DNA of 51,583 bases from a virus (taxonomy: Duplodnaviria > Heunggongvirae > Uroviricota > Caudoviricetes), in IMG/VR virus record IMGVR_UViG_2512047041_000005, positions 1 to 51,583 of that record, one strand, 5' to 3'. The translations under genes were made by a program, and so were the position numbers. The notes beneath the pieces are model-generated. The model saw only the letters and a program-made list of their open reading frames with translations, searched no databases and had not been told where the DNA came from. Positions 7,174-28,353 of the stretch are shown one piece after another. Every line of letters starts with the position of its first letter. Position 1 is the first letter of the stretch.

Positions 7174-7295
7174 AAATGATGGGTGATGGTTTCCTTTGGT
7201 GTTACTGCTGTAGGTTTGTTTCCAACAGTAAACGTCTGTTGAGCACATCCTGTAATAAGCATTGCCAGAGCGGCAGAAAACAACATTTTTTTCAT
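7174..7295 (-). pseudogene. bor: bor lipoprotein gene, 3'-truncated by IS629
   Basis: MKKMLFSAALAMLITGCAQQTFTVGNKPTAVTPKETITHHF then reading runs into the IS629 terminal repeat; lambda Bor-like signal peptide and lipobox. Confidence 0.75.
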
Positions 7296-7775
7296 CTTAT
7301 TATCCTGCATTGTTAAAAACGGCAGAATCCTATGTGACAACAATTAAACGATAGTTAAATGGATTGATGAAAATTAAAACTACACAGGTGGGCTCAGACT
7401 ATTGGAGGAAGTTGGGGACACTCAGAATCCTGTGGAATGAAATAAACCGGTCTATCCGTCCATTACCCTTTTAGCTGCGCTGTATCGTCGCCGTATTCCC
7501 GCATTAACCATGACCGTAGCCCGACGGGGAATTCCTTCTGCGTGAGTGTGCGGGAATAATTAAAAACGATGCACACCGGGTTTTTACCGCGTTAATGATT
7601 CGCGGGTTTATCCCGGTGCGATGGTGGAAGAAACAGGAAGCTGTATTACAGAAAGTGCTACTACTGTATCCCGATGCGATGTATGTAATGTGAGTCAGAT
7701 AATGGCACAGGATGTGGTGATGTGGCAGTCTGGAACACAGGATATATTGTCAGAATAAGACCCGTAGGAATAAAA

Positions 7776-8102
7776 ATGAAAAGACGCCTTTTACTACTTT
7801 TTCTGTTATCTGTCCTGGCAGTGGGATGCTCGCAGCAAAAAGCTGATGAGCCCCGGCAATTAGTGACGGTGTATCCACGATATCCGGAATATGCTGCAGC
7901 AAATTATATCAAGGGGCTGGTTGAGGTTAAGTTCGATATTGGTGCTGATGGGACTGTGACACGGATCGTTTTTCTCCGCTCAGAGCCTCATAATTTGTTT
8001 CGTGATGAAGTGGTGAAGGCCATGGCGAAATGGCGATTTGAAAAGAATCGCCCCTGTCAGGGAGTGAAGAGACAATTTATCTTTACGCCGTCACGTCCTT
8101 GA
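7776..8102 (+). CDS. Lipoprotein with TonB C-terminal-like domain
   Basis: MKRRLLLLFLLSVLAVGC lipobox; C-terminal YPEYAAANYIKGLVEVKFDIGADGTVT resembles TonB/TolA C-terminal fold. Confidence 0.5.
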   Translation: MKRRLLLLFLLSVLAVGCSQQKADEPRQLVTVYPRYPEYAAANYIKGLVEVKFDIGADGTVTRIVFLRSEPHNLFRDEVVKAMAKWRFEKNRPCQGVKRQFIFTPSRP

Positions 8103-8465
8103 TGCTTCCAGGTAGAGAGGGGCTGGAAGCAGGAGAAAAATGAAAGAGCCAGCGGTTATATTTTTGTCATGGCTGACGAGGAATGATGGAAGAAGGCGTT
8201 GTATGCCACACAACGCCTCACTGTTCATTTCTTCTTTTTCTCTGGTGGAACCCGATGAATAAGAGTTGCACTGGTTTCCGATGAGATGGCGATATACTCG
8301 GGCAAAGTATGCTGGCAGTTTTCCAACTGGTCAAAAATACCTGCTCTCGTCTGTTGCAATGCCTGCAGCATGCGGCGGCAATGCGCCTTGCTTTTACTAA
8401 CCATCTTTCCTTCCTCTATCAGTCGCTGCGTGAACTCATCATGGAATACCAGGTAAATGCGGATG

Positions 8466-8717
8466 TTATCGGTTTTGGCTACGCAGCATAGTACAAAACG
8501 GACAGGTGCATCCCGGGACGGGGGAGGCGTCACATGTCCCTGTGATGGTTGTTCCGGGTAATGTACTGTGTGGGGCATAAAAATGTCCGATAATTTTACT
8601 TTCTACCGCAGTTAGTTGATTCGTTGGTCCTGGTAGCACATTGGGCGAGGATTTAAATGCCAGGCAACTGAAGGATGATGTCGCAAGGGAGATAGCGAGA
8701 ATATTTCTGATTTTCAT
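8466..8717 (-). CDS. Small secreted cysteine-containing protein (83 aa)
   Basis: Signal peptide MKIRNILAISLATSSFSCLA; mature part has TGTCDASPVPGCTCPFC; overlaps an alternative ORF 8225-8578. Confidence 0.35.
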   Translation of the reverse strand: MKIRNILAISLATSSFSCLAFKSSPNVLPGPTNQLTAVESKIIGHFYAPHSTLPGTTITGTCDASPVPGCTCPFCTMLRSQNR

Positions 8718-8859
8718 TTGATGATGCCTCTGTGTGAAATGACGGTAAACGACGCACTTGTGCCGGCACATAATAGCAAGCACCATAATAGATCAGATTC
8801 GATTCTTGCTGTAAGTGATAATTATTCTCGTTTTCGGGTCCTTTCCGTCGATCCAACAG

Positions 8860-9052
8860 GTTACGGGGCGGCGACCTCGCGGTTTTTCACTATTTATGAA
8901 AATTTTTCAGGGAAAATCGTGTCGGTACTTCTCGAATATAACTTTTTGTTTTTTTAATATTGCATCCGTAAAGGTCCGACATGAAAGTGTCCGAAAATGC
9001 CTTTTTCTGGCGTTTTCATGTCGGGCCTTGTATTTGATAATGGGTTGTTTTC
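8860..9052 (+). other. Lambda-type cos site (cosN and cosB region)
   Basis: GGGGCGGCGACCTCGCGGTTTTTCACTATTTATGAAAATTTTT matches the lambda cohesive-end region as remembered; lies just upstream of Nu1. Confidence 0.7.
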
Positions 9053-9601
9053 ATGAAGGTTAATAAAAAGAGGCTTGCCGAAATTTTCAACGTGGACCCG
9101 CGGACGATTGAACGCTGGCAGTCTCAGGGACTCCCTTGCGCCTCCAAAGGTAGTAAGGGCATTGAATCTGTATTTGATACTGCCATGGCAATTCAGTGGT
9201 ATGCGCAGAGGGAAACTGATATCGAAAACGAAAAGCTCCGCAAAGAACTGGACGATTTGCGTGCGGCAGCGGAGTCAGATTTACAACCCGGCACCATTGA
9301 CTATGAACGCTACCGGCTCACAAAAGCGCAGGCAGATGCGCAGGAACTGAAAAATGCCCGTGAAGACGGAGTAGTGCTGGAAACTGAACTGTTTACCTTC
9401 ATTCTGCAACGTGTGGCACAGGAGATTTCGGGGATACTTGTGCGTGTGCCGTTGACATTACAGCGTAAATATCCGGACATTTCACCATCACACCTTGATG
9501 TGGTGAAAACTGAAATCGCGAAAGCCTCCAATGTTGCAGCTAAGGCCGGTGAAAACGTGGGCGGGTGGATCGATGATTTCAGACGCGCAGAAGGCAGCTA
9601 A
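9053..9601 (+). CDS. nu1: Terminase small subunit Nu1
   Basis: 182 aa [28 protein letters not shown]...; strong similarity to lambda Nu1. Confidence 0.9.
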
Positions 9602-9836
9602 TGCAGCCGGTGCGATAGCTACAGGGCTTTTATCTCTCATTATTCCTGTTCCACTGACGACAGTTCAGTGGGCCAATAAACATTATTACCTTCCTAAAGA
9701 GTCGTCTTATACCCCGGGGCGATGGGAAACACTGCCGTTTCAGGTTGGCATCATGAACTGTATGGGCAACGATCTGATTCGCACGGTTAACCTGATTAAA
9801 TCTGCCCGTGTTGGTTATACAAAGAGCGAGAGGTAA
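9573..9836 (+). pseudogene. A: Terminase large subunit A, N-terminal ~87-codon stub
   Basis: WANKHYYLPKESSYTPGRWETLPFQVGIMNCMGNDLIRTVNLIKSARVGY matches lambda gpA N-terminus, then stops; rest of A and all head/tail genes absent. Confidence 0.8.
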
Positions 9837-9838
9837 TT

Positions 9839-10270
9839 ATGCGTAAATTATGTGCTGTTATTCTGTCCGCAGTAGTCTGGCTGGTTGCCGCTGGTACGCC
9901 AGCGAGCGCAGCAGAGCATCAGTCCACACTAAGCGCCGGGTATCTTCAGACCCATACTGATATGCCAGGCAGTGATGACCTGAAGGGCATTAACGTGAAA
10001 TACCGTTATGAATTTACGGACACGCTGGGGCTGGTGACGTCATTCAGTTATGCCAATGCCAAAGATGAGCAAAAAACGCATTACAGCGATACCCGCTGGC
10101 ATGAAGATTCCGTGCGTAACCGCTGGTTCAGCATGATGGCGGGGCCATCTGTACGCGTGAATGAATGGTTCAGTGCTTATGCGATGGCAGGTGTGGCTTA
10201 CAGCCGTGTTTCGACGTTCTCCGGGGATTATCTCCGCGTAACTGACAACAAGGGGAAAACGCACGATGTG
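9839..10270 (+). pseudogene. lom: lom (Ail/Lom outer-membrane protein), 5' fragment
   Basis: Signal peptide and Lom-like beta-barrel N-terminal part; reading leaves Lom homology at about 10270 where the Mu-like element begins. Confidence 0.8.
10265..10270. repeat. Left copy of target-site duplication (ATGTGC)
   Basis: Same hexamer at 47651-47656; boundary is ambiguous by up to 3 nt because the element starts TGA. Confidence 0.5.
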
Positions 10271-10349
10271 CTGATGCGCCGCGCGATAAATGCACTCTAT
10301 CTTGTGCGATAAATGGCATCCACGCGGCGTTTCATTATTTGAAAAAGAA

Positions 10350-10922
10350 TTACATTTCAGGTTGCGTTATGACAGTCCCAACAGGGTGATAGCGGTAGAT
10401 CGTTGACAGTCCAATATCATAGATAATTGCCAGCCGCTTTCTGTCATACCCTTTCTGGAGCAATCTTGCGATCTGCTCATGCTGCTCCTTCGTCAGTTTC
10501 GGGCGACGTCCTCCAACTCTTCCTTGTGCTCGCGCAGCAGCCAGTCCTGCCAGCGTGCGCTCAACTATCAGTTCACGCTCCATTTCTGCCAGTGCACCCA
10601 TCATATGAAAAAAGAACCTTCCCATCGGAGTGCTGGTATCGATTGAATCCGTCAGACTGCGAAAATTGACACCTTTTGCGCGTAACTCTTCTGTGAGAGC
10701 AATGAGGTGTTTCATTCTTCTACCCAACCGATCCAGCTTCCAGACCACCAATGTATCCCCTCTTTTAAGGCACTTTAAAGCGCGTTTCAGGCCTGGTCGT
10801 TCCGACTTGGTTCCGCTCATTTTGTCCTCAAAAATCTGTTCACATCCTGCGCACATTAATGCATTGCGTTGCAAATCTGTGTTTTGGTCATTTGTTGACA
10901 CACGTATGTAGCCAATCAGCAT
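10350..10922 (-). CDS. Serine DNA invertase (Pin/Gin/Hin family)
   Basis: 190 aa from internal ATG: MLIGYIRVSTNDQNTDLQRNALMCAGCEQIFEDK..., close to e14 Pin / Mu Gin; C-terminal HTH. Confidence 0.9.
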   Translation of the reverse strand: MLIGYIRVSTNDQNTDLQRNALMCAGCEQIFEDKMSGTKSERPGLKRALKCLKRGDTLVVWKLDRLGRRMKHLIALTEELRAKGVNFRSLTDSIDTSTPMGRFFFHMMGALAEMERELIVERTLAGLAAARAQGRVGGRRPKLTKEQHEQIARLLQKGYDRKRLAIIYDIGLSTIYRYHPVGTVITQPEM

Positions 10923-10988
10923 TAAAAATACTCCCTTTTGAGTGGTTAAAGTACTGAGATAATGTGGGGAGGATTTGAGAGATAAACG

Positions 10989-11211
10989 TTGGTTTGGGGG
11001 AAGGCTCTGCATTGCCTGTTGGTGTACCGGTTCCGTGGCCCACCGCCACACCGCCAGAAGGCTGGTTAAAGTGCGACGGGCGCGCCTTTACAAAAGAACA
11101 ATATCCTGTTCTGGCCAGAGCCTACCCGACCCTCCGTCTTCCCGATTTACGCGGTGAGTTTATCCGTGGATGGGACGACGGGCGCAAGATTGACGAGGGG
11201 CGTAAGTTGCT
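10989..11211. repeat. Inverted repeat A (~222 bp) flanking the invertible fibre segment
   Basis: About 90 percent identical to the reverse complement of 12384-12605; encodes the shared fibre peptide GEGSALPVGVPVPWPTATPP...GWDDGRK. Confidence 0.8.
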
Positions 11212-11467
11212 TTCATGGCAGAAAGGTACACTGGTCGGCGGTCATGACGATAACGATTCTGCGCTTGATATCTCGTACATGAGTAACGGAAATAATATTG
11301 ACTATGGCGGCGATAAGGTGTTTGCGGGGAATTACCGTAGCGATTATTTGTGGTACGCAGTGCTGGGTGGAACAAACAGTCGCGCAAAAGCCGAATTAAA
11401 CGGAGCATTCTTTAACATAACCCGCCCCCGCAATATCGCGTTTAACTATATCGTGAGGGCGGCGTGA
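10994..11467 (+). CDS. Alternative tail-fibre C-terminal cassette (silent orientation)
   Basis: No ATG (track start is TTG, a Leu codon in the repeat); begins with the IR-encoded peptide and ends NIAFNYIVRAA like the expressed fibre; would fuse to the fibre after inversion. Confidence 0.6.
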   Translation: MGEGSALPVGVPVPWPTATPPEGWLKCDGRAFTKEQYPVLARAYPTLRLPDLRGEFIRGWDDGRKIDEGRKLLSWQKGTLVGGHDDNDSALDISYMSNGNNIDYGGDKVFAGNYRSDYLWYAVLGGTNSRAKAELNGAFFNITRPRNIAFNYIVRAA

Positions 11468-11473
11468 TACCGT

Positions 11474-12088
11474 TCAACTGGCAAGTGCCAGTGGCGCTTC
11501 CGGCCAGCTGATTTCAGGTGCCGTGCTGATATCCAGTGCGTTCAGCTCGTCGATATAATCCAGCACGGCGTTCAGTTTTGCCGTTTCTTCTGGTGTCAGA
11601 CTGCGACCAGCACGCAGTTTGAGGTTGATAAGATCGACGGACGCCATCGCCTGTTTCACCCGTTGCTGGCGTTGCTGTCTGGCAACCTCCAGTTCTGCGG
11701 CTCGCTGCCGTTCAGTATCGGTTACCCACGCCTCACCGTTCCAGGTATCCCATGGCGTGGCTGGCTGTTTTGTGGTGGTGTCCGCCGGGTAATCACCCGG
11801 TTGGGTAATCAGAACGGGGTTACCGTTCTCCGTGCTGTATACCGTCTCGCCGCGGTGATCAGGCACATGCTCCCACCCGTTCAGCGTGGCAGTCCGGCAA
11901 ACCACGTAACCCGAAATTGCCTCCGGCGGTGCATCGGCGCACGAATGTGCCGGAGTACCCACCCCAAGGGCGAGATACTCCACAGAGGATGAGGTGTATT
12001 CCCGGGTTTCCTCGTCATAGTGATATACAGTGATATCGCCCGCTACAGTGGCGATACCGTTTTCATCCAGAACTGCAGTGTTACTCAT
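11474..12088 (-). CDS. Tail-fibre assembly protein (Tfa/U-like chaperone)
   Basis: 204 aa directly downstream of the fibre gene; typical Tfa N-terminus MSNTAVLDENGIATVAGDITVYHYDEETREY. Confidence 0.8.
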   Translation of the reverse strand: MSNTAVLDENGIATVAGDITVYHYDEETREYTSSSVEYLALGVGTPAHSCADAPPEAISGYVVCRTATLNGWEHVPDHRGETVYSTENGNPVLITQPGDYPADTTTKQPATPWDTWNGEAWVTDTERQRAAELEVARQQRQQRVKQAMASVDLINLKLRAGRSLTPEETAKLNAVLDYIDELNALDISTAPEISWPEAPLALAS

Positions 12089-13425
12089 TAAACTGCCCTC
12101 ACAATGTAATTAAGTGCAATGCTACGGGGTCTGACAGTGATACCCTTCGCATACCCGCTTCTGATAGAGGTCAGAATAGTAGCCTGCATACCATTGTCTG
12201 ACATTGCCACGACAGGATCGCTGAATGTTGTCCCGTCCGGCATTTTAAAGCTGCCCTCACGAAGGTCTGTAATGGAATCTTCATTGTTGAATCCCATGCC
12301 GACTATCCCCGAGGTTCCCGTAGTGTCCTGGTTATAATAATCCAGCATTGCTGTTCTTAACAGCGTTGCCCCTTGTGCGGACAGCAACTTACGTCCTGTA
12401 TCAACTTTGCGCCCGTCGTCCCATCCACGGATAAACTCACCGCGTAAATCGGGAAGACGGAGGGTCGGGTAGGCTCTGGCCAGAACAGGATATTGTTCTT
12501 TTGTAAAGGCGCGCCCGTCGCACTTTAACCAGCCTGCTGGCGGTGTGGCAGTGGGCCACGGAACAGGTACACCAACGGGCAGCGCCGAGCCTTCCCCCAA
12601 ACCAAGGTAATTGAGGACATCTTTTATACTGCCCTTAGCGATAATAGCGCGACCAATAGCTGTAAGGGTTGCCAGCGCTGCTCGGTCTGCTCCGGTAAAA
12701 TAAGGCAACCGATCTGCTGCAGTGGCAAGTCCTGCCAGAGCAGTGAGCGTGGCATCTGCCGGTTGTTTTCCGTTTGCCAGATCGTATGCAGCCTTGACCG
12801 CTTTCGGTGTGGCGGCCAGTATTTCAGACGTGCTGTTGATGGCACTGCTCAATTGTACGGTGCCTTTTGCCGTCAGCGAGGCAGCAGGCACTCCCGTTAT
12901 CTGACTCCACGGGTGAGTGTGGCTGACGGGCGCCTTGCCGGCTGCAAGGTCGTATGCAGCCTTGACCGCCTTCGGCGTGGCAGCCTCAGTTTCTGATTGA
13001 CTGTCCGTGGCGCTGCTCAGTTGTACGGTGCCTTTTGCCGTCAGTGAAGCCGCAGGCACTCCCGTTATCTGACTCCACGGGTGAGTGTGGCTGGCAGGCG
13101 CCTTGCCGGCTGCCAGGTCGTATGCAGCCTTGACCGCTTTTGGTGTGGCGGCCAGCGTTTCAGAGGTGCTGTTGGTGGCACTGCTCAGTTGGGTGAACCC
13201 CTTAGCTGTCAGTGTCGCGTCCGGGTGGTTACGGGAACGTACGTGTTCAGCCAGTGACTGTGCGGCTTCCTCCGTTTTCTTCTTCAGCCATTTCGTCCTG
13301 TTTGCCAGTTGCCGGGGGGCTCGATTTGATATCCCGTCTGCACCACCCAGAACCGGATCTGATGTCTCCAGTTGATAGATATTTTCTTCCCACTTTTCTG
13401 TTTCATTCAGGTTTCCCATAATCAA
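12088..13425 (-). CDS. Tail fibre protein
   Basis: Collagen-like/ATPKAVKAAYDLA repeats (168-bp tandem units near 12900-13240), C-terminal NYIVRAV; probable ATG 6 nt inside the track ORF. Confidence 0.85.
   Translation of the reverse strand: MIMGNLNETEKWEENIYQLETSDPVLGGADGISNRAPRQLANRTKWLKKKTEEAAQSLAEHVRSRNHPDATLTAKGFTQLSSATNSTSETLAATPKAVKAAYDLAAGKAPASHTHPWSQITGVPAASLTAKGTVQLSSATDSQSETEAATPKAVKAAYDLAAGKAPVSHTHPWSQITGVPAASLTAKGTVQLSSAINSTSEILAATPKAVKAAYDLANGKQPADATLTALAGLATAADRLPYFTGADRAALATLTAIGRAIIAKGSIKDVLNYLGLGEGSALPVGVPVPWPTATPPAGWLKCDGRAFTKEQYPVLARAYPTLRLPDLRGEFIRGWDDGRKVDTGRKLLSAQGATLLRTAMLDYYNQDTTGTSGIVGMGFNNEDSITDLREGSFKMPDGTTFSDPVVAMSDNGMQATILTSIRSGYAKGITVRPRSIALNYIVRAV
12384..12605. 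repeat. Inverted repeat B, partner of 10989-11211
   Basis: Lies inside the expressed tail-fibre gene at the constant/variable boundary. Confidence 0.8.
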
Positions 13426-14000
13426 CTGCTCCCGTGGTTATAACTGCCATCATGGATGGCAGTATTGTTATAGCGAATGGCCACAGACTGATACTCCAGG
13501 CTGGCCAGATGGCAGCGGGCCGGTGCAAATGCAGCCAGCGTCTGACGCAGCATCGCGGCCTGATCGTTAGTAATGGGCTGTTTCAGAATAACGCGATAAA
13601 CTGCCCAGGCGGCTGCATCTCCATGAACAAACAGTCCGTTATAGCTGCGATTGCCGTCGTAACTGAGACGACCTGTGCCTTCAATCAGATCCACTTCACC
13701 AAAGCCAAAACGGCGGATAACTTCCCGGATTGACCACGGCGTCCCTTTATACCGGTGCAGTTCGATGGCTGCTTTTATAAGCATGCGGCGAACATCGTCC
13801 GATTCCGCCAGCTCCCAGCCATCGCCAGACAGTGAGAACTGCTCGCCCAGCCATGGCAGCGCGGAACTGTCGACGATATCGACGAGAAAGACCATCAGTA
13901 CGCTCAGGTCGATGTTATCCAGCCGTCCTGCCAGTCTTCCCAGCGTCCTGAGACTGATATCACCCTCAAGCGGTGGCGGGAGTTGTAATGGCTCAGTCAT
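13422..14000 (-). CDS. Baseplate protein (P2 gpI-like)
   Basis: 192 aa between the baseplate J-like and fibre genes. Confidence 0.65.
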   Translation of the reverse strand: MTEPLQLPPPLEGDISLRTLGRLAGRLDNIDLSVLMVFLVDIVDSSALPWLGEQFSLSGDGWELAESDDVRRMLIKAAIELHRYKGTPWSIREVIRRFGFGEVDLIEGTGRLSYDGNRSYNGLFVHGDAAAWAVYRVILKQPITNDQAAMLRQTLAAFAPARCHLASLEYQSVAIRYNNTAIHDGSYNHGSS

Positions 14001-15096
14001 CAGACACTCCAGTCATGTTAAGAGTGATTGCCGTACAGTTTGCCCATTCGTTTTCTGCCACCACCCGCAGTGCCGGTGTCACCAGTTCAACCTGGTACAC
14101 CCCGGAAACGGACAATGCACTGATAATCTGGCTGGGGACAATATCGCGCCCCAGCGTGGCGGCACGTGATGCCACCCAGTTCTGTATGGCGCTGTTAGCG
14201 GCATCTTTTACAGACCTGGCATCCTGATCACGATAGATCGTAATCCTGGCTTCAATGGTGTAATCCACCTTCACTGGTGTTTTAGCCCGCACTGTATCAG
14301 TGAGTGGCCTGACTTTCTCATCAGAGCAGAAACTCTCTACCAGCGTGAGAACACCGCCGTCCGGCAGACCGGTACTGAGCAGCGGATACAGATCTACGGT
14401 CCCGGGAACCGGGGAAAGCACAGCAACATCGACAATGTTGGGATGGGCCTGCATGGCATGAAAGCGGTATGCGCCACGGCTTCCGGCATTGGTGAATGAC
14501 TCCGGGGCCAGCCTGATACGCTCCCGGAGCCTGTCATCGTCTTCCTGTTCTGAACCGCCGGAACTGGCCGTCAGATTGCTCACCAGCAGGTCGACGTTAT
14601 CAATCTCATCGAGTAACTGACTGACCTGCGCAGGTTGCCAGCCGTTACCAGCGGTACCGGGTTCGGTACAGGTGGACGTGACATTGACCAGCAGCAATCC
14701 GGCCTTCAGTACCACATCTGTATCGGTGGCAAAAATAACGCTGTCGGAAGCGCTGACGCGGGTGCCTGCCGGGATCAGCACATCAATGGCCAGCGCCTCA
14801 TCTACGGAGAACTGGAGCGTGGTGGTGGCAGGCTGCGCGGCAAGACGGTATACACCAACCAGTTCACCGAGGTAATCAATCATCGGCTCACGGGCAAAGG
14901 CGACCAGATTCTGCTTTGCTGCCTCCTGTACCGCAACCCTGACCAGCATTTCGCGATAGGCCCACAGATCAATCAGCAGACGTTCTGCCTGTGCCGGGTA
15001 CAGCGTTTTGCCGGTATCCGCTTCATACTTCGCAATCATTTCTGCCGTGATTTTGTCGGCATCGCGTTCAATAAAATCGGGTTCTGTCAGCGCCAT
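13993..15096 (-). CDS. Baseplate J-like protein
   Basis: 367 aa; start overlaps the W-like stop (ATGGCGCTGA), canonical W/J arrangement. Confidence 0.8.
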   Translation of the reverse strand: MALTEPDFIERDADKITAEMIAKYEADTGKTLYPAQAERLLIDLWAYREMLVRVAVQEAAKQNLVAFAREPMIDYLGELVGVYRLAAQPATTTLQFSVDEALAIDVLIPAGTRVSASDSVIFATDTDVVLKAGLLLVNVTSTCTEPGTAGNGWQPAQVSQLLDEIDNVDLLVSNLTASSGGSEQEDDDRLRERIRLAPESFTNAGSRGAYRFHAMQAHPNIVDVAVLSPVPGTVDLYPLLSTGLPDGGVLTLVESFCSDEKVRPLTDTVRAKTPVKVDYTIEARITIYRDQDARSVKDAANSAIQNWVASRAATLGRDIVPSQIISALSVSGVYQVELVTPALRVVAENEWANCTAITLNMTGVSDD

Positions 15097-15434
15097 AGCA
15101 GCTCCTGAGTCCGGGTCTGTCCGTCTGAGCCTTTCCAGCTCACCCGGAGCGTAAGATGTTCGCCGTCGACGGCGGGTTTAACTGACATAAGCTGGCAGCG
15201 GGGCTCCCAGCGCCGGATGGCATCGACGGATTCGCGCACCACATGCGGAATGGCCCGGTCTACAGGCTAGTCGATATAAAGATGCAGATTGCTGCCGAAC
15301 TCCGGGCGATGCGGGTCGCTGCCGCGGGGAGTCCGCAGGATAATTTGAATCGCCTGCCGGATATCATCCAGCCCCCGGACAATTTCGCCGGGAGCCTGCA
15401 GGGCTGGTTGCCAGAATACTGAGGTTGTTTTCAT
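15087..15434 (-). pseudogene. Baseplate W-like (gp25 family) gene with in-frame amber codon
   Basis: 116 codons, ATG at about 15432-15434; reads ...FGSNLHLYID-TAG-PVDRAIPHVVRESVDAIRRWEPR...; TAG at about 15267-15269; no ORF of 60 aa or more in the track across this gap. Confidence 0.7.
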
Positions 15435-15488
15435 GGGGGCAGTATTGCCCCCGTGCGGGAACGCTGATATTAAAGGCGTTTAAAAAGC

Positions 15489-16085
15489 TCAGTGGGAGTG
15501 GTGGCTGGAGTTTTCGCCATCAGACAACATACTGCCCGTGGCATGGGCATTCCCTTTAATCTCGATATTGCCATGGATGGTCGCGGTAACACCTTCACCA
15601 CCAGAACCCGCCATGCCTCCTTCGTAAATCAGCTTACCCCTGACACGCAGATCTCCGGTAAGTTCGGTTTCCGGTGCGTCAATCGTGGCTTTCTGTGTTT
15701 TCAATACCACATCAGCACCACACTCAATGACAATATGCTCAATGCCGCCCCGGATGATCAGAGTGTGCGTCTTCCGGTTGTAGCTGTACTCTGCACCATC
15801 AGCAAACCGGGTTCCCCGGATATTTTTGTCACTGAACGGTGGTTTATCGACGTCTGAATACACCGCGCCCAGAATAACACCATCCTCGCCGTTGGCATCG
15901 AGCAGCACCTCAACCTGCTCCCCCACGTCAGGGAGCCAGTAATCTTTGTTATCCTGGGTATTGCGCTGCAGCACGTTAAGCCAGTTTGTGCGCAGGTTAT
16001 CGCATTCAGGCAGACGAACGCGGGCCTGAACCCTGTCGGCATCAACGGCACTGACCGTACCGACCTGACGAGTGACACCAGTCAT
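15489..16085 (-). CDS. Baseplate spike (P2 gpV-like)
   Basis: 198 aa, glycine-rich with histidine-rich C-terminus (SSHHSH) typical of spike apex. Confidence 0.75.
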   Translation of the reverse strand: MTGVTRQVGTVSAVDADRVQARVRLPECDNLRTNWLNVLQRNTQDNKDYWLPDVGEQVEVLLDANGEDGVILGAVYSDVDKPPFSDKNIRGTRFADGAEYSYNRKTHTLIIRGGIEHIVIECGADVVLKTQKATIDAPETELTGDLRVRGKLIYEGGMAGSGGEGVTATIHGNIEIKGNAHATGSMLSDGENSSHHSH

Positions 16086-17236
16086 TTTTTCTTCTCCTTA
16101 ATCACCGTCGATGTACTGCCATCCGGGTGATAAACCGTGAGTTTCTGAGTTTTTTGTTTTTTCCCTCTTGTGACTGGCCCCCGTGCCACTTCCAGCTCTG
16201 TGGTGTAGCCGCTGTTACGGTCAAACGCATGGCGGGCAGTGGTTATGAGCCATGGCCCGGATAACTGCCCAAAACCCACCAGTTCAATTTTGTTGCCTGC
16301 TGTCAGTTGAGGTGTTCCCGTCAGCGTCAGGGAGCCGTTCTGCTGGTATTCGTTATGTCTGGCCAGTGCTGAATCCGCTTTAATCCGGGCACTGTCCGGG
16401 TCGTTGACGCGGCTGTTAACTTTAAGTGAGTCAGCGCTGGTAACCTTACCACCTTTGAGCTTTTTGTCGCTTTCACGGGTACCACCATCAGCTTCGTAGA
16501 CGATCAGTTTTTTACTGCTGCTTTTCTGGTGTTTTACCTTTGCAGATTTATAGACCCGGTTGATGGTGTCACGCAGGGAAAAGCGGGCCACATCCTGCGG
16601 TTTTAACTGCCTGACCGGCTCCTGACTGCGCAGTGTGGCCAGATGAGAAAAAATCAGCTGGTCACTGACCACTTTCACTGCATAACCATACTCGCTGGCC
16701 AGCCGGCGCAGAAAACCCACGTCGGTTTCAGCATACTGGGTCACCCGGTCGATTCTGATGGACTCAATGCTGCCCACCAGTTTCAGCCGGTGCTTTCTGG
16801 CAATCCGCCCCGCAACAGCTGCCAGCGTGGTGTTCTCAAAACCACGACTGGTTTTAGTCCGCAGGGCACTGTTAACCGAGGTGGCCACCCCACGGATAGA
16901 AACAACGGAAGCGGGCGAACTCACTTCGATCTCGTCTATAGAGAACGTACCGCAGGACAGCAGCTTCTCGCCCTGATAGCCCATTTTCAGCGTCAGCGTG
17001 TCACCCTTGCCCGGATACCATTTATCCAGCCAGCGGCCATCGGTGTCGTCCAGCTCCACCTCAATGGTATCGGACTCATTTTTGATGTTATCGCTCCAGG
17101 TCACACGGGTGACATAAGGCGCGATATCAGAGGTGATGTTTTTCTGCAGATACCACAGAGTGAACACCGGTGTCAGCACATCGCTGACGCCGGTTAACGC
17201 TGATGTGACTTGCGCAGTGCTGTTTATCTCAGCCAT
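16082..17236 (-). CDS. Tail/baseplate hub protein (P2 gpD / Mu P-like)
   Basis: 384 aa in conserved position between the U/N-like and V-like genes. Confidence 0.7.
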   Translation of the reverse strand: MAEINSTAQVTSALTGVSDVLTPVFTLWYLQKNITSDIAPYVTRVTWSDNIKNESDTIEVELDDTDGRWLDKWYPGKGDTLTLKMGYQGEKLLSCGTFSIDEIEVSSPASVVSIRGVATSVNSALRTKTSRGFENTTLAAVAGRIARKHRLKLVGSIESIRIDRVTQYAETDVGFLRRLASEYGYAVKVVSDQLIFSHLATLRSQEPVRQLKPQDVARFSLRDTINRVYKSAKVKHQKSSSKKLIVYEADGGTRESDKKLKGGKVTSADSLKVNSRVNDPDSARIKADSALARHNEYQQNGSLTLTGTPQLTAGNKIELVGFGQLSGPWLITTARHAFDRNSGYTTELEVARGPVTRGKKQKTQKLTVYHPDGSTSTVIKEKKK

Positions 17237-17436
17237 GGGGCAATATCCTCTTCTGTACGGGCTTCTTCAGCCTCAATCACCGGGATCAGTAACAACAGCC
17301 CGGAGGGCAGCACCGGCGTGATGGCCACGTGCGGATTGGCGGCAATAATCCGGGGATAGCCCAGCGGGTCACCGTAGTACTGCCATGCCAGCGAATCCCA
17401 GCGCTCTCCGTCACGGGTAACATGTTCAAGAAACAT
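17224..17436 (-). CDS. Tail protein X-like (70 aa)
   Basis: Small ORF overlapping neighbours; ATG 3 nt inside the track ORF, which begins at GTG. Confidence 0.55.
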   Translation of the reverse strand: MFLEHVTRDGERWDSLAWQYYGDPLGYPRIIAANPHVAITPVLPSGLLLLIPVIEAEEARTEEDIAPWLR

Positions 17437-18320
17437 CACACACTCCTCGTCAGTATTCTGGCGGCCATTGCACTTAATCCCGGAGACATGCGGTTGAATG
17501 CTGTGCCGGCGGCGTTAAGCTGCCCGGAAACGGTATCCAGAGCACCTGCAATATTTCTTTTGTCCACACCACTCAGCGCAGACTGTGCCTGCTGTACATA
17601 CGTGGCTGCTTCGCTGGCTGTTCTGGCCAGACTGATGGCATCGGGCATGGATTCAGAGAGTGCGTTAAACGCCGGAACACTTTTCCCCAGAGCCCCGGAG
17701 ATATTACCCAGTCCGCTCATCAGCCCCGGCACACGGGTCAGTGCGACAACGGGGTTATCCTTCATTTTCTGTGTCACCCGAACGGCGCTGATAGTGGTCT
17801 GGAGTACAGACTGCGCCTGTTTCGCATAGTTGACGCCGTTGCGGATGAACTGCGCCACCCCTGAAGGTGAAGGAATGGCACCGGAGACCGCCCCGACACC
17901 CGGGAGCTTCGTGCGTATTGCCGGTGGTTGCAGAGGATTTTTCGGGTCACCGGTGTATTCCCGGAGAGACACGGTGGCACTGACAGCCAGCACGTTGCCG
18001 GTACTGTCAGTCTGCTCGCTGGTTGCAGTCACATCGGTAATCACGAACCAGCCGCGATAGTCACCGTTGCCGAAGACCAGCGCCAGTGCCTGATGGGCTT
18101 TCATGGCTGTTCGCAGTCTCGCCAGCTCCACATCGGGTACACAATAATGCTGATGGAAAACCAGAGTTATCTGGATTTCGTCCAGCCTGTCGCCGACGAA
18201 CTGCAGGCCAGGCTTACCCCCGATGCGGGCATGCTCCGCATAATCGACGCCGAACGTGGCCTCGAAGCCGTCCCAGTAGGTAATCAGCTCAAACTCAATA
18301 TCACCCAGTACGGCAAACAT
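17436..18320 (-). CDS. Tail protein (P2 gpU-like N-terminus / Mu N-like)
   Basis: 294 aa immediately downstream of the tape measure gene. Confidence 0.6.
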   Translation of the reverse strand: MFAVLGDIEFELITYWDGFEATFGVDYAEHARIGGKPGLQFVGDRLDEIQITLVFHQHYCVPDVELARLRTAMKAHQALALVFGNGDYRGWFVITDVTATSEQTDSTGNVLAVSATVSLREYTGDPKNPLQPPAIRTKLPGVGAVSGAIPSPSGVAQFIRNGVNYAKQAQSVLQTTISAVRVTQKMKDNPVVALTRVPGLMSGLGNISGALGKSVPAFNALSESMPDAISLARTASEAATYVQQAQSALSGVDKRNIAGALDTVSGQLNAAGTAFNRMSPGLSAMAARILTRSV

Positions 18321-21271
18321 CAGCGGTACTCCTTACGTTGTTTCTGAGCCAGCAGACGCTCCAGCATTTTTTCCAGCTCATGCAGACTCATATTCAGGGC
18401 ACCAGTCAGTCCTGCAGGCGCTGTGGTTTCCCTGCCATTGAGGAAAAACTGAGGATTAAAGCTGACCTGGATACCACCAGACGTTCCACCGCCGGTTGCA
18501 GCTGCACCACGGCCTGAATATCCGGCAGCCAGGATTTCAGGCGAGGGGATACGGGGAACATCCGGTGTCATCTCATTTGCCAGACGTTGCCCTGGTAAAA
18601 TCGATGCCCGGGTGGAGAGCGGAATAGCGGGCATGGAAGACAAACTATTGATTACGGCTCCGATCGCATTTTTAGCAGACGACATAAACCCATTGATATC
18701 GGGCAACGGCATACTGAAGCGAACACCTGAAGTGTTATCTCGTATTTCTGGCCCCTGAATGCTCACGGGCATTCTGGGGAGCAGTTCACTGGCCATTCGC
18801 TGCCCGGCCAGAGCTGCAAGCGGAGTGGTCCGCTGCAGGCCAATGGCGGCCCCCTGCGCGATATTGTCACCAAAGCCCATAAACACGCGGCTCGGCGAAT
18901 GAATGCCCAGCTTTTCGCTGAACCAGCCACTGATGCTGTCACCCATTCCGGTTACACTGGATTTGAGCGACTCCCATTTGTTTTTGATACCGTTAATCAG
19001 ACCATCGACAAGATGGCCACCGAAGTCGGTAAACTTTGCCGGCAGATCAACACCAAGATATTTCAGCGCAACTGCAAAGGCTTTATAGAGCAGACCTGCC
19101 GGCGACCAGTTAATCAGCAGCTTACCAGTTCCCGCGATACCGCCGTTAAAGGCTTCCTGAATGTCAGCCCAGCACTGTTTAAACCAGCTACTGATGCTGT
19201 CACCCATTCCGGTTACACTGGATTTGAGCGACCCCCATTTGTTTTTGATACCGTTAATCAGACCGTCGATAAGATGGCCACCGAAGTCGGTGAACTTTGC
19301 CGGCAGAGCAACGCCGAAATATTTCAGCGCAGCCGCAAAGGCTTTATAGAGCAGGCCTGCCGGCGACCAGTTAATCAGCAACTTACCAATTCCCACAATG
19401 CCGCCGTTAAAGGCTTCCTGAATGTCTGCCCAGCGCTGTTTAAACCAGCCACTGACTGCCCCCCAGTTGCGGTAGATAAGGTAAGCTGCTGCCGCGACAG
19501 CGGTGATAACGAGACCGATGGGATTCATCATCAGCGCACGTCCAATCCAGAGAACAGCACGTCCGGCGAGCATAATTCCGCGAACCAGCCCCCCGGAGAG
19601 CACGCCACTCAGTGTTCTGGCTCCTCTGGCGACGGCGCTAAATCCGGTCACCAGCCAGCGGAGCTTACCGCCTTGCCCCAGTGCGAGCGACAGACGAAGC
19701 CAGTTGGCCCGAAGTAAAACAGCATTTTTCCAGACACTTACAAAGGGGGAAATAAGGAGATTCAGCCCCAGTTTGAGACCAACAGTCGCTATCTTAATCG
19801 CAAGGAGCGCACTGATGAGCTTAAAAGCCCCACTGACAAATTGCGGGTGAGTCGCTACCCAGTGTTTTGCCCCCTGAATGAGTGGAAGCAGTTCCTGAGT
19901 CAAAGAAATAAAAGATGGAGCTAATTGATCGCCCAGCGTAATTGCCAGATCGCGACTGCTGACCATAAGTGTTTTAGTGGCTTCAAGGGGAGATTTCAGC
20001 CGCTGATCATAAGCACTGGCAAGCAAATCGTTATCCGCAGCCCTGAGAGCACCGGCACGGATCTCTCGATATCTGTCCATGTTGGCCAGCATCGGGCGGA
20101 TAAATGCCATGACCTGCATATCCGCGAACATATCGCCCAGACCAAAGTTTTTCGCCAGAGCCTGAAGTGCCTCATCTCTTGCCGTATCATTCTTTATTTT
20201 CATGGCTGATTTGAAGCCGGCCAGCGCTTCGGGGCTTTTGGCATTGAGGTAACGTTCTATAACACTCAACATCCCTTCAATCGGAGAGATCCCCGCAGCT
20301 TTATAACTCGCAATAGATCCCTGCAAATCAATACCCAGATCAGCAAACTGTTTCTGAGTATCGCGGGCAAAAATTTTGGTAAGAAAGTTTTTAAAATTAT
20401 TGGCTGCTTCGTCGGTGGAACCTGCACCGATTTTTGCTATCTGGAGACTGGCCCCGATTTCAGCAACAGCCTCTTTTCCACTGGCAATACCCGCCATCAT
20501 TGGGGCCAGGGACTGCATCCACTTGACCTGATCCGGGATTTCAAATGACCCCTGGTCACCGGCATAAGCCATAATATTCTGAACGGCACCAAAATCTCTG
20601 GCCGCACCTTTCAGGGAGTTTTGCCAGACTGCGGCCACTTTTGCCCAGTCCTGAGCAGACGTGCGTGTTGCCGTTGCCGCGCGGGCAATATCCGGCATCA
20701 GAAAACCGATATCTGACACATTATCAATATTGTCGCTGATGAGTGAACCCACCGCCTCCTGCAGCTCATCCTGATACTGATTGTATTTAAGCGCCCAGCC
20801 TTTTATCTGTCCGGCAAGTGCATCCCGCGTTTTATTGTCATATTTTGCGGTGATCGACATATCAATCATTTTGTCCTGAAAAAACATGGACTGCTGAACG
20901 GCAGGGGAAACCGTATGATAAACAGTCTGAGCCATGCCATACGCTTCAATCCCCTGACCATACAGCGCCATGCGGTTAGCTTTCAGCGCATCACTGGTAG
21001 CGGATGCCGCTGACAGACGGCGCTGCTGGCGCTCAATTTGCTCCATGGTGCGGCTTACCCGCAGCAGCTCGCTGTTGAGATGCTGCATCCGGGAAGAACC
21101 CAGTTGACCATAACGTTCTGTTGCACGGGTTAAAGCGTTCTGACGTTCCTGCAGGCGGCGTGAGGTATCGCTCAGGGAATCAAGCGCACGGCGGGTACCG
21201 CTCATTGCAGAACGGAATGTGCTGCCAATCATCCCGCCGATAACAACGCCGACTGAAAACTGTCCCGACAT
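18320..21271 (-). CDS. Tail tape measure protein
   Basis: 983 aa, helical and Gly/Ala-rich; internal 87-aa tandem duplication. Confidence 0.85.
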   Translation of the reverse strand: MSGQFSVGVVIGGMIGSTFRSAMSGTRRALDSLSDTSRRLQERQNALTRATERYGQLGSSRMQHLNSELLRVSRTMEQIERQQRRLSAASATSDALKANRMALYGQGIEAYGMAQTVYHTVSPAVQQSMFFQDKMIDMSITAKYDNKTRDALAGQIKGWALKYNQYQDELQEAVGSLISDNIDNVSDIGFLMPDIARAATATRTSAQDWAKVAAVWQNSLKGAARDFGAVQNIMAYAGDQGSFEIPDQVKWMQSLAPMMAGIASGKEAVAEIGASLQIAKIGAGSTDEAANNFKNFLTKIFARDTQKQFADLGIDLQGSIASYKAAGISPIEGMLSVIERYLNAKSPEALAGFKSAMKIKNDTARDEALQALAKNFGLGDMFADMQVMAFIRPMLANMDRYREIRAGALRAADNDLLASAYDQRLKSPLEATKTLMVSSRDLAITLGDQLAPSFISLTQELLPLIQGAKHWVATHPQFVSGAFKLISALLAIKIATVGLKLGLNLLISPFVSVWKNAVLLRANWLRLSLALGQGGKLRWLVTGFSAVARGARTLSGVLSGGLVRGIMLAGRAVLWIGRALMMNPIGLVITAVAAAAYLIYRNWGAVSGWFKQRWADIQEAFNGGIVGIGKLLINWSPAGLLYKAFAAALKYFGVALPAKFTDFGGHLIDGLINGIKNKWGSLKSSVTGMGDSISSWFKQCWADIQEAFNGGIAGTGKLLINWSPAGLLYKAFAVALKYLGVDLPAKFTDFGGHLVDGLINGIKNKWESLKSSVTGMGDSISGWFSEKLGIHSPSRVFMGFGDNIAQGAAIGLQRTTPLAALAGQRMASELLPRMPVSIQGPEIRDNTSGVRFSMPLPDINGFMSSAKNAIGAVINSLSSMPAIPLSTRASILPGQRLANEMTPDVPRIPSPEILAAGYSGRGAAATGGGTSGGIQVSFNPQFFLNGRETTAPAGLTGALNMSLHELEKMLERLLAQKQRKEYR
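18890..19450. repeat. 261-bp tandem repeat (about 2.2 copies) inside the tape measure gene
   Basis: ctgatgctgtcacccattccggttacactggatttgagcga recurs with 261-bp period; in-frame 87-aa protein repeat. Confidence 0.8.
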
Positions 21272-21346
21272 AGTGGTTAACCTCCGGGGAAGGTGAAAAG
21301 ACGTGAGGGGATAACGCAGAACAGCCGCTACTGGCGGCTGTCTGTA

Positions 21347-21604
21347 CTATGATTTGTCGCCGTACTCGCTTTTGATTTGCTCTTCAGCCTGCTCCAGCCA
21401 CATCTCCAGATCGTCAGTATCGAGGGCATCAATCTCCCCCGGCTGAAACCGGAACCATCTCGCCAGCAGCCCCTGCGCCTGCGTCAGCGCCCTGGTTGCT
21501 CTCACCCATCCCCGTGATGAGCTGAAATCGTTTCTGTAACTGCAGGTAATCAGCCAGATCCATATTGTCGAGATCTTCCGGGAGAAGACCAGTACTGCGG
21601 GCAA
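21347..21604 (-). CDS. Chaperone frameshift extension (E'-like), +1/-2 frame
   Basis: Open in the +1 frame relative to the chaperone and extends past its stop; acidic helical tail ...DTDDLEMWLEQAEEQIKSEYGDKS. Confidence 0.5.
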   Translation of the reverse strand: MPAVLVFSRKISTIWIWLITCSYRNDFSSSRGWVRATRALTQAQGLLARWFRFQPGEIDALDTDDLEMWLEQAEEQIKSEYGDKS

Positions 21605-21764
21605 TCAGCGGTTCGTCCCAGTCTGCCGGGTTTTTGCTGATTTTGCGCACCTGCTTCAGGTCTTTTACCGTCAGGCGTTTCAGTTCAACCAGCTCAATTC
21701 TGGTACCTGCAGCAGTGGTGAAGGGATAAGACAATTTAAAAGTATCGGATGGGGTCTGTGACAT
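21429..21764 (-). CDS. Tail assembly chaperone (E/G-like)
   Basis: 111 aa directly upstream of the tape measure gene with an overlapping extension ORF. Confidence 0.7.
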   Translation of the reverse strand: MSQTPSDTFKLSYPFTTAAGTRIELVELKRLTVKDLKQVRKISKNPADWDEPLIARSTGLLPEDLDNMDLADYLQLQKRFQLITGMGESNQGADAGAGAAGEMVPVSAGGD

Positions 21765-21840
21765 GATTGTGCTCCTGTGTAAGTTCAGGGCAGTATGTCG
21801 GGAGAAGCGCGTGACGGATATTAAAGGAGATTAAGAAGAA

Positions 21841-21854
21841 GGGGCCGGAGCCCC
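21841..21854 (-). terminator. GC-rich hairpin GGGGCCGGAGCCCC between tube-proximal ORF and chaperone
   Basis: Perfect 5-bp stem with 4-nt loop followed on the minus strand by a T-rich tract. Confidence 0.3.
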
Positions 21855-21960
21855 TGTGATGTCAGCAAGTGCGAAACCCCTTGCAGTTACGCAGGAAAGC
21901 GATGAGAAGCGTCTTTCCCTCAGATTTGTCGGTGCCGGAGAACCAGTGGTCGGGAGGCTC

Positions 21961-22143
21961 CTATGCTTCAATCAAATCCTCCAGTTTGCGGGCCTTTGAA
22001 CGTGTGCAGTCAATCGGGTCATTGGTTTTACGGGTATTAAAAAGGGTTTCCACCCCCGGAATATCAAGGAGGGTAAACCACGTACCATTTGACATGCCCA
22101 GTGCCGCACATCGTCCTCCTTTATCCGTCAGTTCAACACTCAC
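21961..22143 (-). CDS. Small hypothetical protein
   Basis: 60-aa ORF starting 3 nt after the tube gene stop. Confidence 0.3.
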   Translation of the reverse strand: MSVELTDKGGRCAALGMSNGTWFTLLDIPGVETLFNTRKTNDPIDCTRSKARKLEDLIEA

Positions 22144-22145
22144 CG

Positions 22146-22667
22146 TCAGCCCCCGATATTGATACGGTAGTCAGTCAGTTGATCAACACCTCCGACCCGG
22201 AAGATGTTGGCCAGATAGTCCAGTTGCAGCAGCTCTTCACCATCCAGTACCTGTCTGATATACGTGCAGGTGAAGCTACTGGAGAACTCGGCGTTCTCGT
22301 GCTGTTTGAACGTCCCCAGCGGGTTCTTCTTGAACATAATCGTCAGGAAGGTGACCAGCGGGATTTCGTCAATCAGCCCCTGCGAGCTGTAGCGCTGGAC
22401 GCTGGAACGACACTGCAGTGCCAGCGACCTGTACGGGTTCGCGGCAGACAGCATCGCATCGCGGTAAAAGCTGTTCCATTTGATTTCGCCTTCCAGTTTG
22501 TCAAAACCAGCCGGGAGTTCCACCTTACCCACCATCCCCAGCGCCTTGTGTTCCTGCATAATCATGGAGACATCGGGGAGTTTAACTTCCTCAGCCCGTC
22601 CCAGCAGGTTAGTACCATCCAGATAGATGTTGGCATTCGTGATGCGGTTTATCTCAATCTTTGACAT
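22146..22667 (-). CDS. Tail tube protein
   Basis: 173 aa immediately downstream of the sheath gene. Confidence 0.8.
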   Translation of the reverse strand: MSKIEINRITNANIYLDGTNLLGRAEEVKLPDVSMIMQEHKALGMVGKVELPAGFDKLEGEIKWNSFYRDAMLSAANPYRSLALQCRSSVQRYSSQGLIDEIPLVTFLTIMFKKNPLGTFKQHENAEFSSSFTCTYIRQVLDGEELLQLDYLANIFRVGGVDQLTDYRINIGG

Positions 22668-24094: not shown

Positions 24095-24335
24095 GGGTGT
24101 CCTCCGTTTTCACTTCGCTGTCACTGCTGCTTCTGCGCTTTGGTGACTGCACAGCCGGTGTGCCGGCGGGTTTAGTCTCTTCAGGTACCGGCGTCAGATG
24201 TTTCAGCGCCACCAGTACCTTCACGTAGTCATGCTCCTCCGGCAGGGAAACCGTCTTCCCCGGCCAGAGCAGGATTTCGGTTCCGTCCGACAGCGTGACG
24301 CCGCTGGCCGGGCCGGAATAGCGGTATTCTTTCAT
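24084..24335 (-). CDS. Hypothetical Mu-like structural protein
   Basis: 83 aa from ATG; position between the gp37-like and sheath genes. Confidence 0.45.
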   Translation of the reverse strand: MKEYRYSGPASGVTLSDGTEILLWPGKTVSLPEEHDYVKVLVALKHLTPVPEETKPAGTPAVQSPKRRSSSDSEVKTEDTHGS

Positions 24336-24799
24336 CACTCGCTTTCCTCATAGTTCACTTCGGTTAACAGCGGGCCGGACGGTAAATCGCTGTCTTCGAT
24401 AAAGACGCTTTCAGTCGCGAAGTCGAGGGCGTACTGCCACAGCCCCCTGACTTCACCGATAAACACCTCGCGGGTCAGCCAGATACGGCGGCGGCAGCCG
24501 GGCGGGGTGTGGCCACCGAGAATGCGGCGGACAGCATCCAGGACATTAATCGCCCCTTTTTTACCGTTGAGCTGGCGGAAGACCACCGTGACGCAGAGCT
24601 GGATAGTCTGAGACTGGATCACTGCACCGGTATCATCCGGCCTGTCAAAGCGCGAACCGGCATAGCTCAACAGCAACGCGCCAACCGGATGGTTCAGGCG
24701 ATATTCAGCCGGTTTCTCCGGGAAGTACTCCACCTGCAGTTGCGGCAGCTTCTCGCGTAACCGGGCCAGTACCGCATCAAGGACGGGCAGAACGTTCAT
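24335..24799 (-). CDS. Mu gp37-like head-tail connector region protein
   Basis: 154 aa, conserved position. Confidence 0.55.
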   Translation of the reverse strand: MNVLPVLDAVLARLREKLPQLQVEYFPEKPAEYRLNHPVGALLLSYAGSRFDRPDDTGAVIQSQTIQLCVTVVFRQLNGKKGAINVLDAVRRILGGHTPPGCRRRIWLTREVFIGEVRGLWQYALDFATESVFIEDSDLPSGPLLTEVNYEESE

Positions 24800-25245: not shown

Positions 25246-25246
25246 G

Positions 25247-25585: not shown

Positions 25586-25594
25586 AACGCCTCC

Positions 25595-26548: not shown

Positions 26549-26562
26549 GCTCTCTCCTTAAA

Positions 26563-27850: not shown

Positions 27851-27892
27851 ATTCTCTGGCAATGATAAATCACCCGCCTGAAGAGAGAAAAC

Positions 27893-28351: not shown

Positions 28352-28353
28352 TG

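Follow-up and report, generated by a model that had tools for sequence, protein, structure and literature searches.

The locus at positions 8,860 to 10,312 of the window (the whole stretch of 51,583 nucleotides analysed here, IMG/VR record IMGVR_UViG_2512047041_000005) carries a cos site and a small terminase gene next to a large terminase gene that is cut short directly in front of lom. This arrangement raises the question of how a packaging end came to stand without the genes that would use it, and whether a helper phage could still use it. The reading that we consider highly probable is that of a decaying phage-21-type lambdoid prophage, located at icd in E. coli of the IAI39 lineage, whose packaging end was left after a deletion.

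Initiation of packaging needs cosN and cosB, and proper termination needs cosQ, the termination element, together with cosN at the downstream cos (PMC4669245). The corresponding part of the window contained the following features.

7174..8865, plus strand: right-end phage-21-type segment with part of bor/iss, a TonB-C-like moron, a small ORF and the run-up to cos
8836..8842, plus strand: cosQ, GGGTCCT, identical in the alignment to phage 21 positions 42902-42908, where cosQ is annotated
8866..8877: cosN, the 12-nt cohesive-end sequence GGGCGGCGACCT, equal to phage 21 positions 1-12
8915..9030, plus strand: cosB of the phage 21 type, from a base-for-base alignment to the annotated cosB of phage 21 (OL657228), with the subsites R3 (8915-8930), IHF site I1 (8939-8951), R2 (8971-8986, inverted) and R1 (9014-9030)

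The right-end segment was 100% identical to phage 21 positions 41240-42931, and the same result was obtained with an intact phage-21-type prophage of E. coli O18; its left neighbour in the window is an IS3-family element. With up to one mismatch allowed, GGGCGGCGACCT was found in the window at 8866-8877 only. Together with the cosQ heptamer about 25-30 bp upstream, this 12-nt cosN has the layout of a lambda/21-type cos. The predicted cosB comprises three TerS-binding R sites, the second of them inverted, with the IHF site between R3 and R2, and this order agrees with the published description (PMC4669245). Over the whole region, the window copies the joined right and left ends of phage 21 virion DNA base for base (alignment to OL657228). 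The sole difference in cosB was a run of seven T residues at 8949-8955 in place of eight. The run comprises seven, eight or nine T residues within the same bacterial lineage, and seven also in the intact O18 prophage, and the variation was treated as homopolymer noise. The locus had originally been described as a lambda-type cos. A complete cos is indeed present, and all its terminase- and IHF-binding elements were found by alignment, but its specificity is that of phage 21 and not of lambda, as it is the cosB of phage 21 to which it aligns. Lambda and 21 have cosQ and cosN in common, but discriminate more than 1000-fold through cosB and TerS (PMC4669245); a helper would therefore need 21 specificity.

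Downstream of cos, the two terminase genes were identified as follows.

9053..9601, plus strand: gene 1, TerS (Nu1 homologue), 182 aa, intact, with 0 mismatches to phage 21 gene 1
9573..9836, plus strand: gene 2 stub (TerL, gpA homologue), a pseudogene of 84 authentic codons followed by Ser-Glu-Arg and TAA at 9834-9836

The product of gene 1 is identical to gp1 of phage 21, and it corresponds to RefSeq WP_000867568.1, the protein also encoded by the intact O18 prophage. It matched Pfam Phage_Nu1 (PF07471) over positions 1-163 of 164 (E=1.9e-81), and the match covers both the N-terminal winged helix-turn-helix and the C-terminal TerL-binding part. The predicted intactness of Nu1 was thus confirmed by DNA identity as well as by the full-length domain match.

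The start of gene 2 at 9573 lies within the last part of gene 1, an overlap that phage 21 has too, and the first 253 nt of gene 2 showed 0 mismatches to phage 21 gene 2. The homology stops at 9825, after codon 84, and the terminal Ser-Glu-Arg and stop are derived from the lom leader. What had been predicted as the first ~87 codons of A followed by a stop are accordingly 84 authentic and three foreign codons (S-E-R) in front of the TAA. A divergent gene of full length can be ruled out for the stub, which has 87 aa where the phage 21 protein has 642, matches GpA_ATPase at no more than positions 2-43 of 247, and is labelled in RefSeq (IAI39) as an incomplete large terminase. A homologue of phage 21 positions 962-2637, which encode the TerL nuclease domain and the portal-binding end, was absent from the entire window. 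The stub ends at K84, directly after the P-loop-like motif 76-KSARVGYT-83, in the numbering of lambda gpA, with which the 21 protein agrees here. Without the remaining ATPase, the nuclease and the portal-binding end, the stub cannot cut or translocate DNA. The ATG of lom is located at 9839, 2 nt after the stop and not 3 nt as first counted. The adjacency of stub and lom start, expressed originally as a fusion, was therefore borne out, but not a fused protein, as the stop codon lies between them. A PDB sequence search with the stub gave no match. The promoter scan upstream of gene 1 returned 4 sites compared to 5.2 expected in shuffled sequences, which does not support a promoter of its own, and Rfam gave no match in 8860-10312.

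The end of the homology in gene 2 marks the junction of the deletion.

9825..9826: deletion junction between gene 2 nt 253 (left parent) and the J-lom spacer, 13 nt upstream of the lom ATG (right parent)
9839..10271, plus strand: 5' part of lom, codons 1-144 of 199, 99.3-99.8% identical to lom of phage 2G7b and strain N32

On the left side, window positions 7174-9825 (2,652 bp) were 100% identical to the intact O18 phage-21-type prophage at icd and 99.9-100% identical to phage 21, with divergence setting in directly after 9825. Identity over such a length with an intact prophage is far beyond chance. On the right side, the J-lom spacer and lom matched phage 2G7b and the N32 prophage at 99.3-99.8%. 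The junction was mapped by a three-way comparison of O18 gene 2 with the J-lom spacers of N32 and 2G7b. The window reads ...TATACAAAGA|GCGAGAGGTAATTATG, the left parent ...TATACAAAGA|TGTTGC, and the right parent ...GCAGAAAA|GCGAGAGG. At 9825/9826 the parents have at most 1 nt in common, so the crossover was illegitimate and not a homologous recombination. The Shine-Dalgarno sequence of lom, GAGAGG, was kept to the right of the junction. Two other origins of the junction were considered and rejected: an adjacent deletion mediated by Mu, as the junction is 446 bp away from the Mu-like end and contains no Mu sequence, and an IS-mediated event, as there is no IS at 9825/9826.

Mapping of the whole phage 21 genome onto the window showed that positions 27611-33250, 41240-42931, 1-961 and 19217 onward are kept. 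No homologue of positions 962 to about 19200 (W to J) was found anywhere in the window. A separate loss comprises positions 33251-41239 (ral, N, cI, cro, cII, O, P, nin, Q, S, R, Rz and part of bor), and the IS3-family element at window positions 5863-7173 stands in their place. The absence of W through J had been taken as a sign of a second deletion, and the phage 21 map indeed separates an IS-linked block from the loss of gene 2 through J. Alignment to lambda-like genomes, as the original prediction had proposed, set the endpoints of the latter at 9825|9826 by means of phage 21, O18, N32 and 2G7b. Its size would amount to about 18,215 + 54 ≈ 18.3 kb, with O18 used for the head-tail block and N32 for the spacer. 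Both the right-hand parent and the size of 18.3 kb are inferred from the sequences of other lambdoid phages (2G7b, N32), because phage 21 and the O18 prophage have no lom.

That the remnant cannot package itself, as had been proposed, is in line with these losses, since nothing of TerL remains after residue 84, and the portal along with every head and tail gene is gone. As Q, the late promoter, TerL and the capsid are all missing, the remnant is inert alone and can neither express nor use its packaging module.

The lom gene itself is interrupted by a second phage.

10272..47650: Mu-like transposable prophage, 37,379 bp, inserted in lom
47651..47823, plus strand: 3' part of lom, of which the first 6 nt are the duplicated target copy, with a 100% match to 2G7b lom

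The 5' ORF of lom matched Pfam Ail_Lom (PF06316) over positions 1-147 of 199. An uninterrupted Ail/Lom barrel of ~199 aa was not found, as the 37,379-bp insertion lies 433 nt into lom. Joining 9839-10271 to 47657-47823 restores a Lom of 199 aa, of which 198 residues match 2G7b Lom. The insertion is flanked by a 6-bp target duplication, ATGTGC, at 10266-10271 and 47651-47656. Both termini read TGAT-N9-GATAAATG in inverted orientation. The terminus was set by means of three insertions of this element into unrelated genes, at unrelated chromosomal positions of other E. coli genomes, and TGATGCGCCGCGCGATAAATG was common to all compared insertions. The end of lom had been placed at 10312; however, lom homology stops at 10271, where the Mu-like prophage begins. 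The ORF end at 10312 is thus a read-through from the interrupted lom into the Mu-like end.

The gene content of the insertion (transposase, MuB-like protein, Mor, Gam, homologues of Mu F, Mu G and the portal, and an invertase) is that of a Mu-like phage. The recombinase at 10350-10922, with Resolvase and HTH_7 matches, is the Gin/Pin-type invertase of this phage and lies outside the lambdoid remnant. The Mu-like prophage looks complete, and the sit iron/manganese uptake genes are located further on.

To the left of the remnant lies icd, and to its right are sitABCD and an icd fragment, precisely the setting of phage 21 and O18. In the RefSeq annotation of IAI39, the left part reads icd, int, xis, exo, bet, gam, kil, cIII, ea10 and the IS3-family element. 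It is followed by a truncated iss/bor, the TonB-C-like gene, a small ORF, the terminase small subunit, the incomplete large terminase, an incomplete Ail/Lom, the recombinase and ~37 kb of Mu-type genes. On the right, Ail/Lom without its N-terminus, stf, sitDCBA and the icd fragment complete the order. Judged from gene order and sequence, this is the phage 21 layout with gaps and one large insertion. From att to att, the composite element comprises ~57 kb, or ~19 kb without the Mu-like insert.

A full-length match to the ~1.7 kb around the locus was obtained at 99.9% in IAI39 (NC_011750) and in AR_0013. The window corresponds to neither of the two but to a very close third relative. In comparison to IAI39, its invertible tail-fibre segment is flipped, one more IS3 is present, the tail-fibre repeats are shorter by 769 bp, and there are a few point differences; in AR_0013, a further IS copy separates iss' from the tonB-like gene. 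A comparison with 5,426 complete E. coli genomes found the gene 2/lom and lom/Mu junctions in IAI39 and AR_0013 only. In the index of public assemblies, 61 blocks contain the exact 87-aa stub. In the ten further loci read, all from draft or metagenomic assemblies, the gene 2/lom junction was identical throughout, and the exact lom/Mu junction string was present in nine and not found in the tenth (L017). Every genome with the deletion also had the Mu-like insertion and vice versa, so that either order of the two events is compatible with the data. An Rz-like gene is still present upstream in one metagenomic contig (L020), and this single short contig hints at a later date for the IS-linked loss.

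According to the preferred reading, one illegitimate recombination would have joined gene 2 nt 253 to the point 13 nt upstream of lom. It would have removed ~18.3 kb that comprised the remainder of gene 2, W, the portal gene, and the head and tail genes up to and including J. The cos site and gene 1 lie directly left of the breakpoint and would for this reason have survived by position. In independent events, the IS3-family element would have replaced the immunity, replication, Q and lysis block, and a Mu-like phage would have transposed into lom.

An origin of the junction in a recombination between two lambdoid genomes, one of the 21 type at icd and one carrying lom and stf, would make the right arm foreign. 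In favour of it, neither phage 21 nor the intact O18 prophage carries a lom gene between J and stf, the lom-stf segment is closest (96-99%) to the unrelated phage 2G7b and to the Qin-locus prophage of strain N32, and stf of the window is only 73-83% identical to that of phage 21. However, lambdoid phages are mosaic, and a lom-carrying ancestor of the 21 type would be unremarkable. Moreover, the crossover took place without homology and was thus no homologous exchange, and both ends of the element are of the phage 21 type (the icd-int side, and 307 bp upstream of sitD with 97% identity). We regard this origin as unlikely, and it would in any case lead to the same outcome, the loss of gene 2 through J.

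Use of the orphan cos by a helper, offered originally as speculation, would be the sole and passive activity left to the remnant, and it is limited by the mechanism of packaging. A 21-specific terminase from a superinfecting or co-resident phage could bind cosB, nick cosN and package rightward into the Mu-like prophage, which begins 1.4 kb from cos in the packaging direction and has its far end 38.8 kb from cosN. Helper terminase packages a passive or repressed chromosomal prophage only between two tandem cos sites (PMC4669245). No second cosN was found in the 42.7 kb to the end of the window, and the IAI39 sequence that continues from there had none up to about 50 kb either. Packaging begun here cannot terminate properly, because there is no downstream cosQ-cosN. 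The lambda head accepts about 75-105% of 48.5 kb, roughly 51 kb at the upper limit, and one-ended packaging has classically been described for single-cos lambda prophages. Given the missing downstream cos and the size of the element, ~57 kb, a 21-type helper could at best start such one-ended packaging. The numbers of places in IAI39 were equal for a lom-only query and a cos-to-lom query, so this genome seems to be without a second copy of a 21-type cos and gene 1. In-situ packaging of ~38.8 kb with the Mu-like prophage into lambda-size heads, begun by a 21-type helper as a cos-driven analogue of lateral transduction, or a decoy function of TerS and the TerS-binding N-terminus of TerL against the terminase of 21-type phages, is very unlikely.

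A related proposal is that the kept module is under selection, either because TerS and the TerL N-terminus would act as a decoy against 21-type phages, or because cos would be a handle that mobilises the Mu-like prophage or sit. Gene 1 and every cos subsite are intact in sequence, and remnants that keep Nu1 recur independently in DLP12 and Qin of K-12. Potential helpers are common: with one best place reported per genome, 856 of 5,426 complete E. coli genomes had a place covering at least 80% of the 21-type cos-gene 1-gene 2 query, and isolated phages with at least 99.7% identity in this region exist. There is also a precedent in O157, where a defective prophage without its own terminase was packaged, most likely by the terminase of another prophage (PMC2669165). 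On the other hand, zero substitutions over 2.65 kb relative to the intact prophage point to a recent event, so the intactness of gene 1 needs no selection; the same lack of divergence would be compatible with gene 1 being functional. The late promoter and Q are deleted, and the promoter-like sites upstream do not exceed the number expected. The absence of a second cos within about 50 kb, the size of the composite element relative to the head limit, and the apparent lack of another 21-type cos and gene 1 in IAI39 speak against the proposal as well. Furthermore, IS positions and other structure vary between the window, IAI39 and AR_0013, which gives the appearance of ongoing decay. Selection for the kept module is therefore highly improbable in our estimation. 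An assembly artefact or a collapsed repeat at the gene 2/lom junction has a practically negligible probability, as IAI39 and AR_0013, both finished independently, and the 10 further assemblies all have the same junction, and such identity across independent assemblies makes it an inherited, clonal marker.

A decaying prophage of the phage 21 type also fits the comparison with known systems. With phage 21 itself (OL657228, M81255, X02501), the window prophage has in common the icd integration site, the sitABCD cargo, and cosQ, cosN, cosB, gene 1 and the first 253 nt of gene 2, which are identical except for one T. In contrast to phage 21, gene 2 of the window is cut after codon 84, positions 962-~19200 and 33251-41239 are gone, and the ancestor carried lom.

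The closest parallels in kind are the K-12 remnants of the DLP12 and Qin type, with which the locus agrees in that Nu1 is kept, TerL is truncated, W through J are absent and genes of the tail-fibre end are kept. In DLP12 (nohD-aaaD'-tfaD'), a Nu1 homologue and an N-terminal TerL stub remain, and the head and tail genes are deleted up to the tail-fibre end. However, the homology of aaaD', with about 71% identity, ends at about codon 103 in comparison to 84 here, and aaaD' passes directly into tfaD', the module is only ~68-71% identical to the 21 type, and the right endpoint lies in tfa and not upstream of lom, which makes it an independent event. In Qin (nohA-stfQ-tfaQ-pinQ), a Nu1 homologue is likewise kept with all head and tail genes gone, and the junction runs into the side-tail-fibre region beside the Pin invertase. 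Unlike the present locus, Qin has no annotated A stub, and its invertase is lambdoid, whereas that of the window belongs to the Mu-like prophage.

In O157 Sakai, defective lambdoid prophages use the terminase of another prophage through a near-identical cos (PMC2669165). Sp4 (Asadulghani et al. 2009, PMC2669165) resembles the window remnant as a defective lambdoid prophage without a working terminase of its own. It differs in that it excises, amplifies and is of packageable size, whereas the window remnant has no replication module and, with the Mu-like insert, measures ~57 kb; in addition, IAI39 appears to be without a co-resident 21-type terminase. A likeness to cos-type PICIs, which rely on helper terminase and capsids, exists insofar as the remnant is a chromosomal element with a lambda-like cos. 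An assignment as PICI or satellite was rejected, as there is no primase or replication module, no packaging-redirection gene and no capsid-matched size. The remnant has the Int and Xis of phage 21 and neither O nor P, and its gene content is collinear with phage 21.

The locus is a case of ordinary prophage decay, the pattern of which is already known, and RefSeq already annotates the terminase small subunit, the incomplete large subunit and the incomplete Lom. Its importance beyond correct annotation is thus small. The comparison provides base-level decay endpoints for the phage-21-type prophage of the IAI39 lineage (the 18.3-kb deletion, the IS-linked 8-kb loss and the Mu-like insertion in lom), and a third independent E. 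coli example, after DLP12 and Qin, of cos/Nu1 being kept while head and tail genes were lost. If orphan cos sites of this kind were cut by common 21-type phages, one-ended packaging or double-strand breaks could start from them as defined points of entry into the chromosome. Rfam matches in the window were located only inside the two IS elements (ALIL pseudoknot and isrC) and at the cIII thermoregulator.

Phage 21 positions 33251-41239 (OL657228 numbering) are absent from the prophage; this stretch carries the immunity, replication and lysis genes as well as Q and part of bor/iss, and the gap coincides exactly with an IS3-family element. This element and the other features discussed here are as follows.

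1-1143, minus strand: integrase, 380 aa, intact in the window, 98.7% identity to phage 21 Int
5311-5369, minus strand: lambda cIII thermoregulator element (Rfam, 88.5 bits), lying upstream of cIII, which is retained
5863-7173: IS3-family element at the gap, with an Rfam ALIL pseudoknot at 6199-6315
8949-8955: T-run of cosB, between IHF site I1 and R2
10272-47650: Mu-like transposable prophage, 37,379 bp, within lom and flanked by a 6-bp duplication of its target (ATGTGC)
10350-10922: Gin/Pin-type invertase, adjoining the invertible tail-fibre segment of the Mu-like prophage
45094-46351: IS3-like insertion, 1,258 bp with a 3-bp duplication, in the Mu-like early region

Either an IS-mediated adjacent deletion or recombination between two IS copies could account for the loss at 5863-7173. 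In IAI39, a complete E. coli genome sharing the gene 2/lom and lom/Mu junctions, an identical copy of the element was found near icd, outside the prophage. In AR_0013, the other complete genome with these junctions, an additional copy separates iss' from the tonB-like gene.

In one metagenomic locus, L020 (ENA ERZ27269078, contig k141_23070), the gene 2/lom and lom/Mu junctions are identical to those of the window. An Rz-like lysis gene (positions 433-891, 84% identity to phage 21 Rz) is kept upstream of these junctions. The head-tail deletion at the gene 2/lom junction may therefore have preceded, or been independent of, the IS-linked event that removed the lysis region.

The early-left arm of the prophage, from xis to ea10, looks undamaged. 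The integrase is likewise intact in AR_0013, while that of IAI39 has a mutated stop codon (A vs. C at window position 1) and is called a pseudogene in RefSeq. In cosB, the T-run comprises seven residues in the window and in the intact O18 prophage, eight in phage 21 and IAI39, and nine in one draft genome. This difference, which shifts the R3-R2 spacing by 1 bp, reflects either homopolymer variation or sequencing error.

In the Mu-like prophage, the early genes (transposase, MuB-like, Gam, and Mor) are transcribed towards one end and the late genes point away from them. The gene order differs from that of Mu and resembles that of BcepMu. Other E. coli genomes carry an identical right terminus at unrelated positions in the chromosome. 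According to the IAI39 annotation, three genes of the Mu-like prophage contain internal stops. The segment beside the invertase (10989-12608), comprising the tail-fibre C-terminus and tfa, is flipped in the window compared to IAI39, which suggests that it is still switching within the lineage. Tandem repeats occur in the tail-fibre gene (12380-13191), and IAI39 contains 769 bp more of this repeat than the window. The IS3-like insertion is missing in IAI39; within it, a match to the Rfam isrC sRNA model was detected (46161-46283, minus strand, 145 bits).
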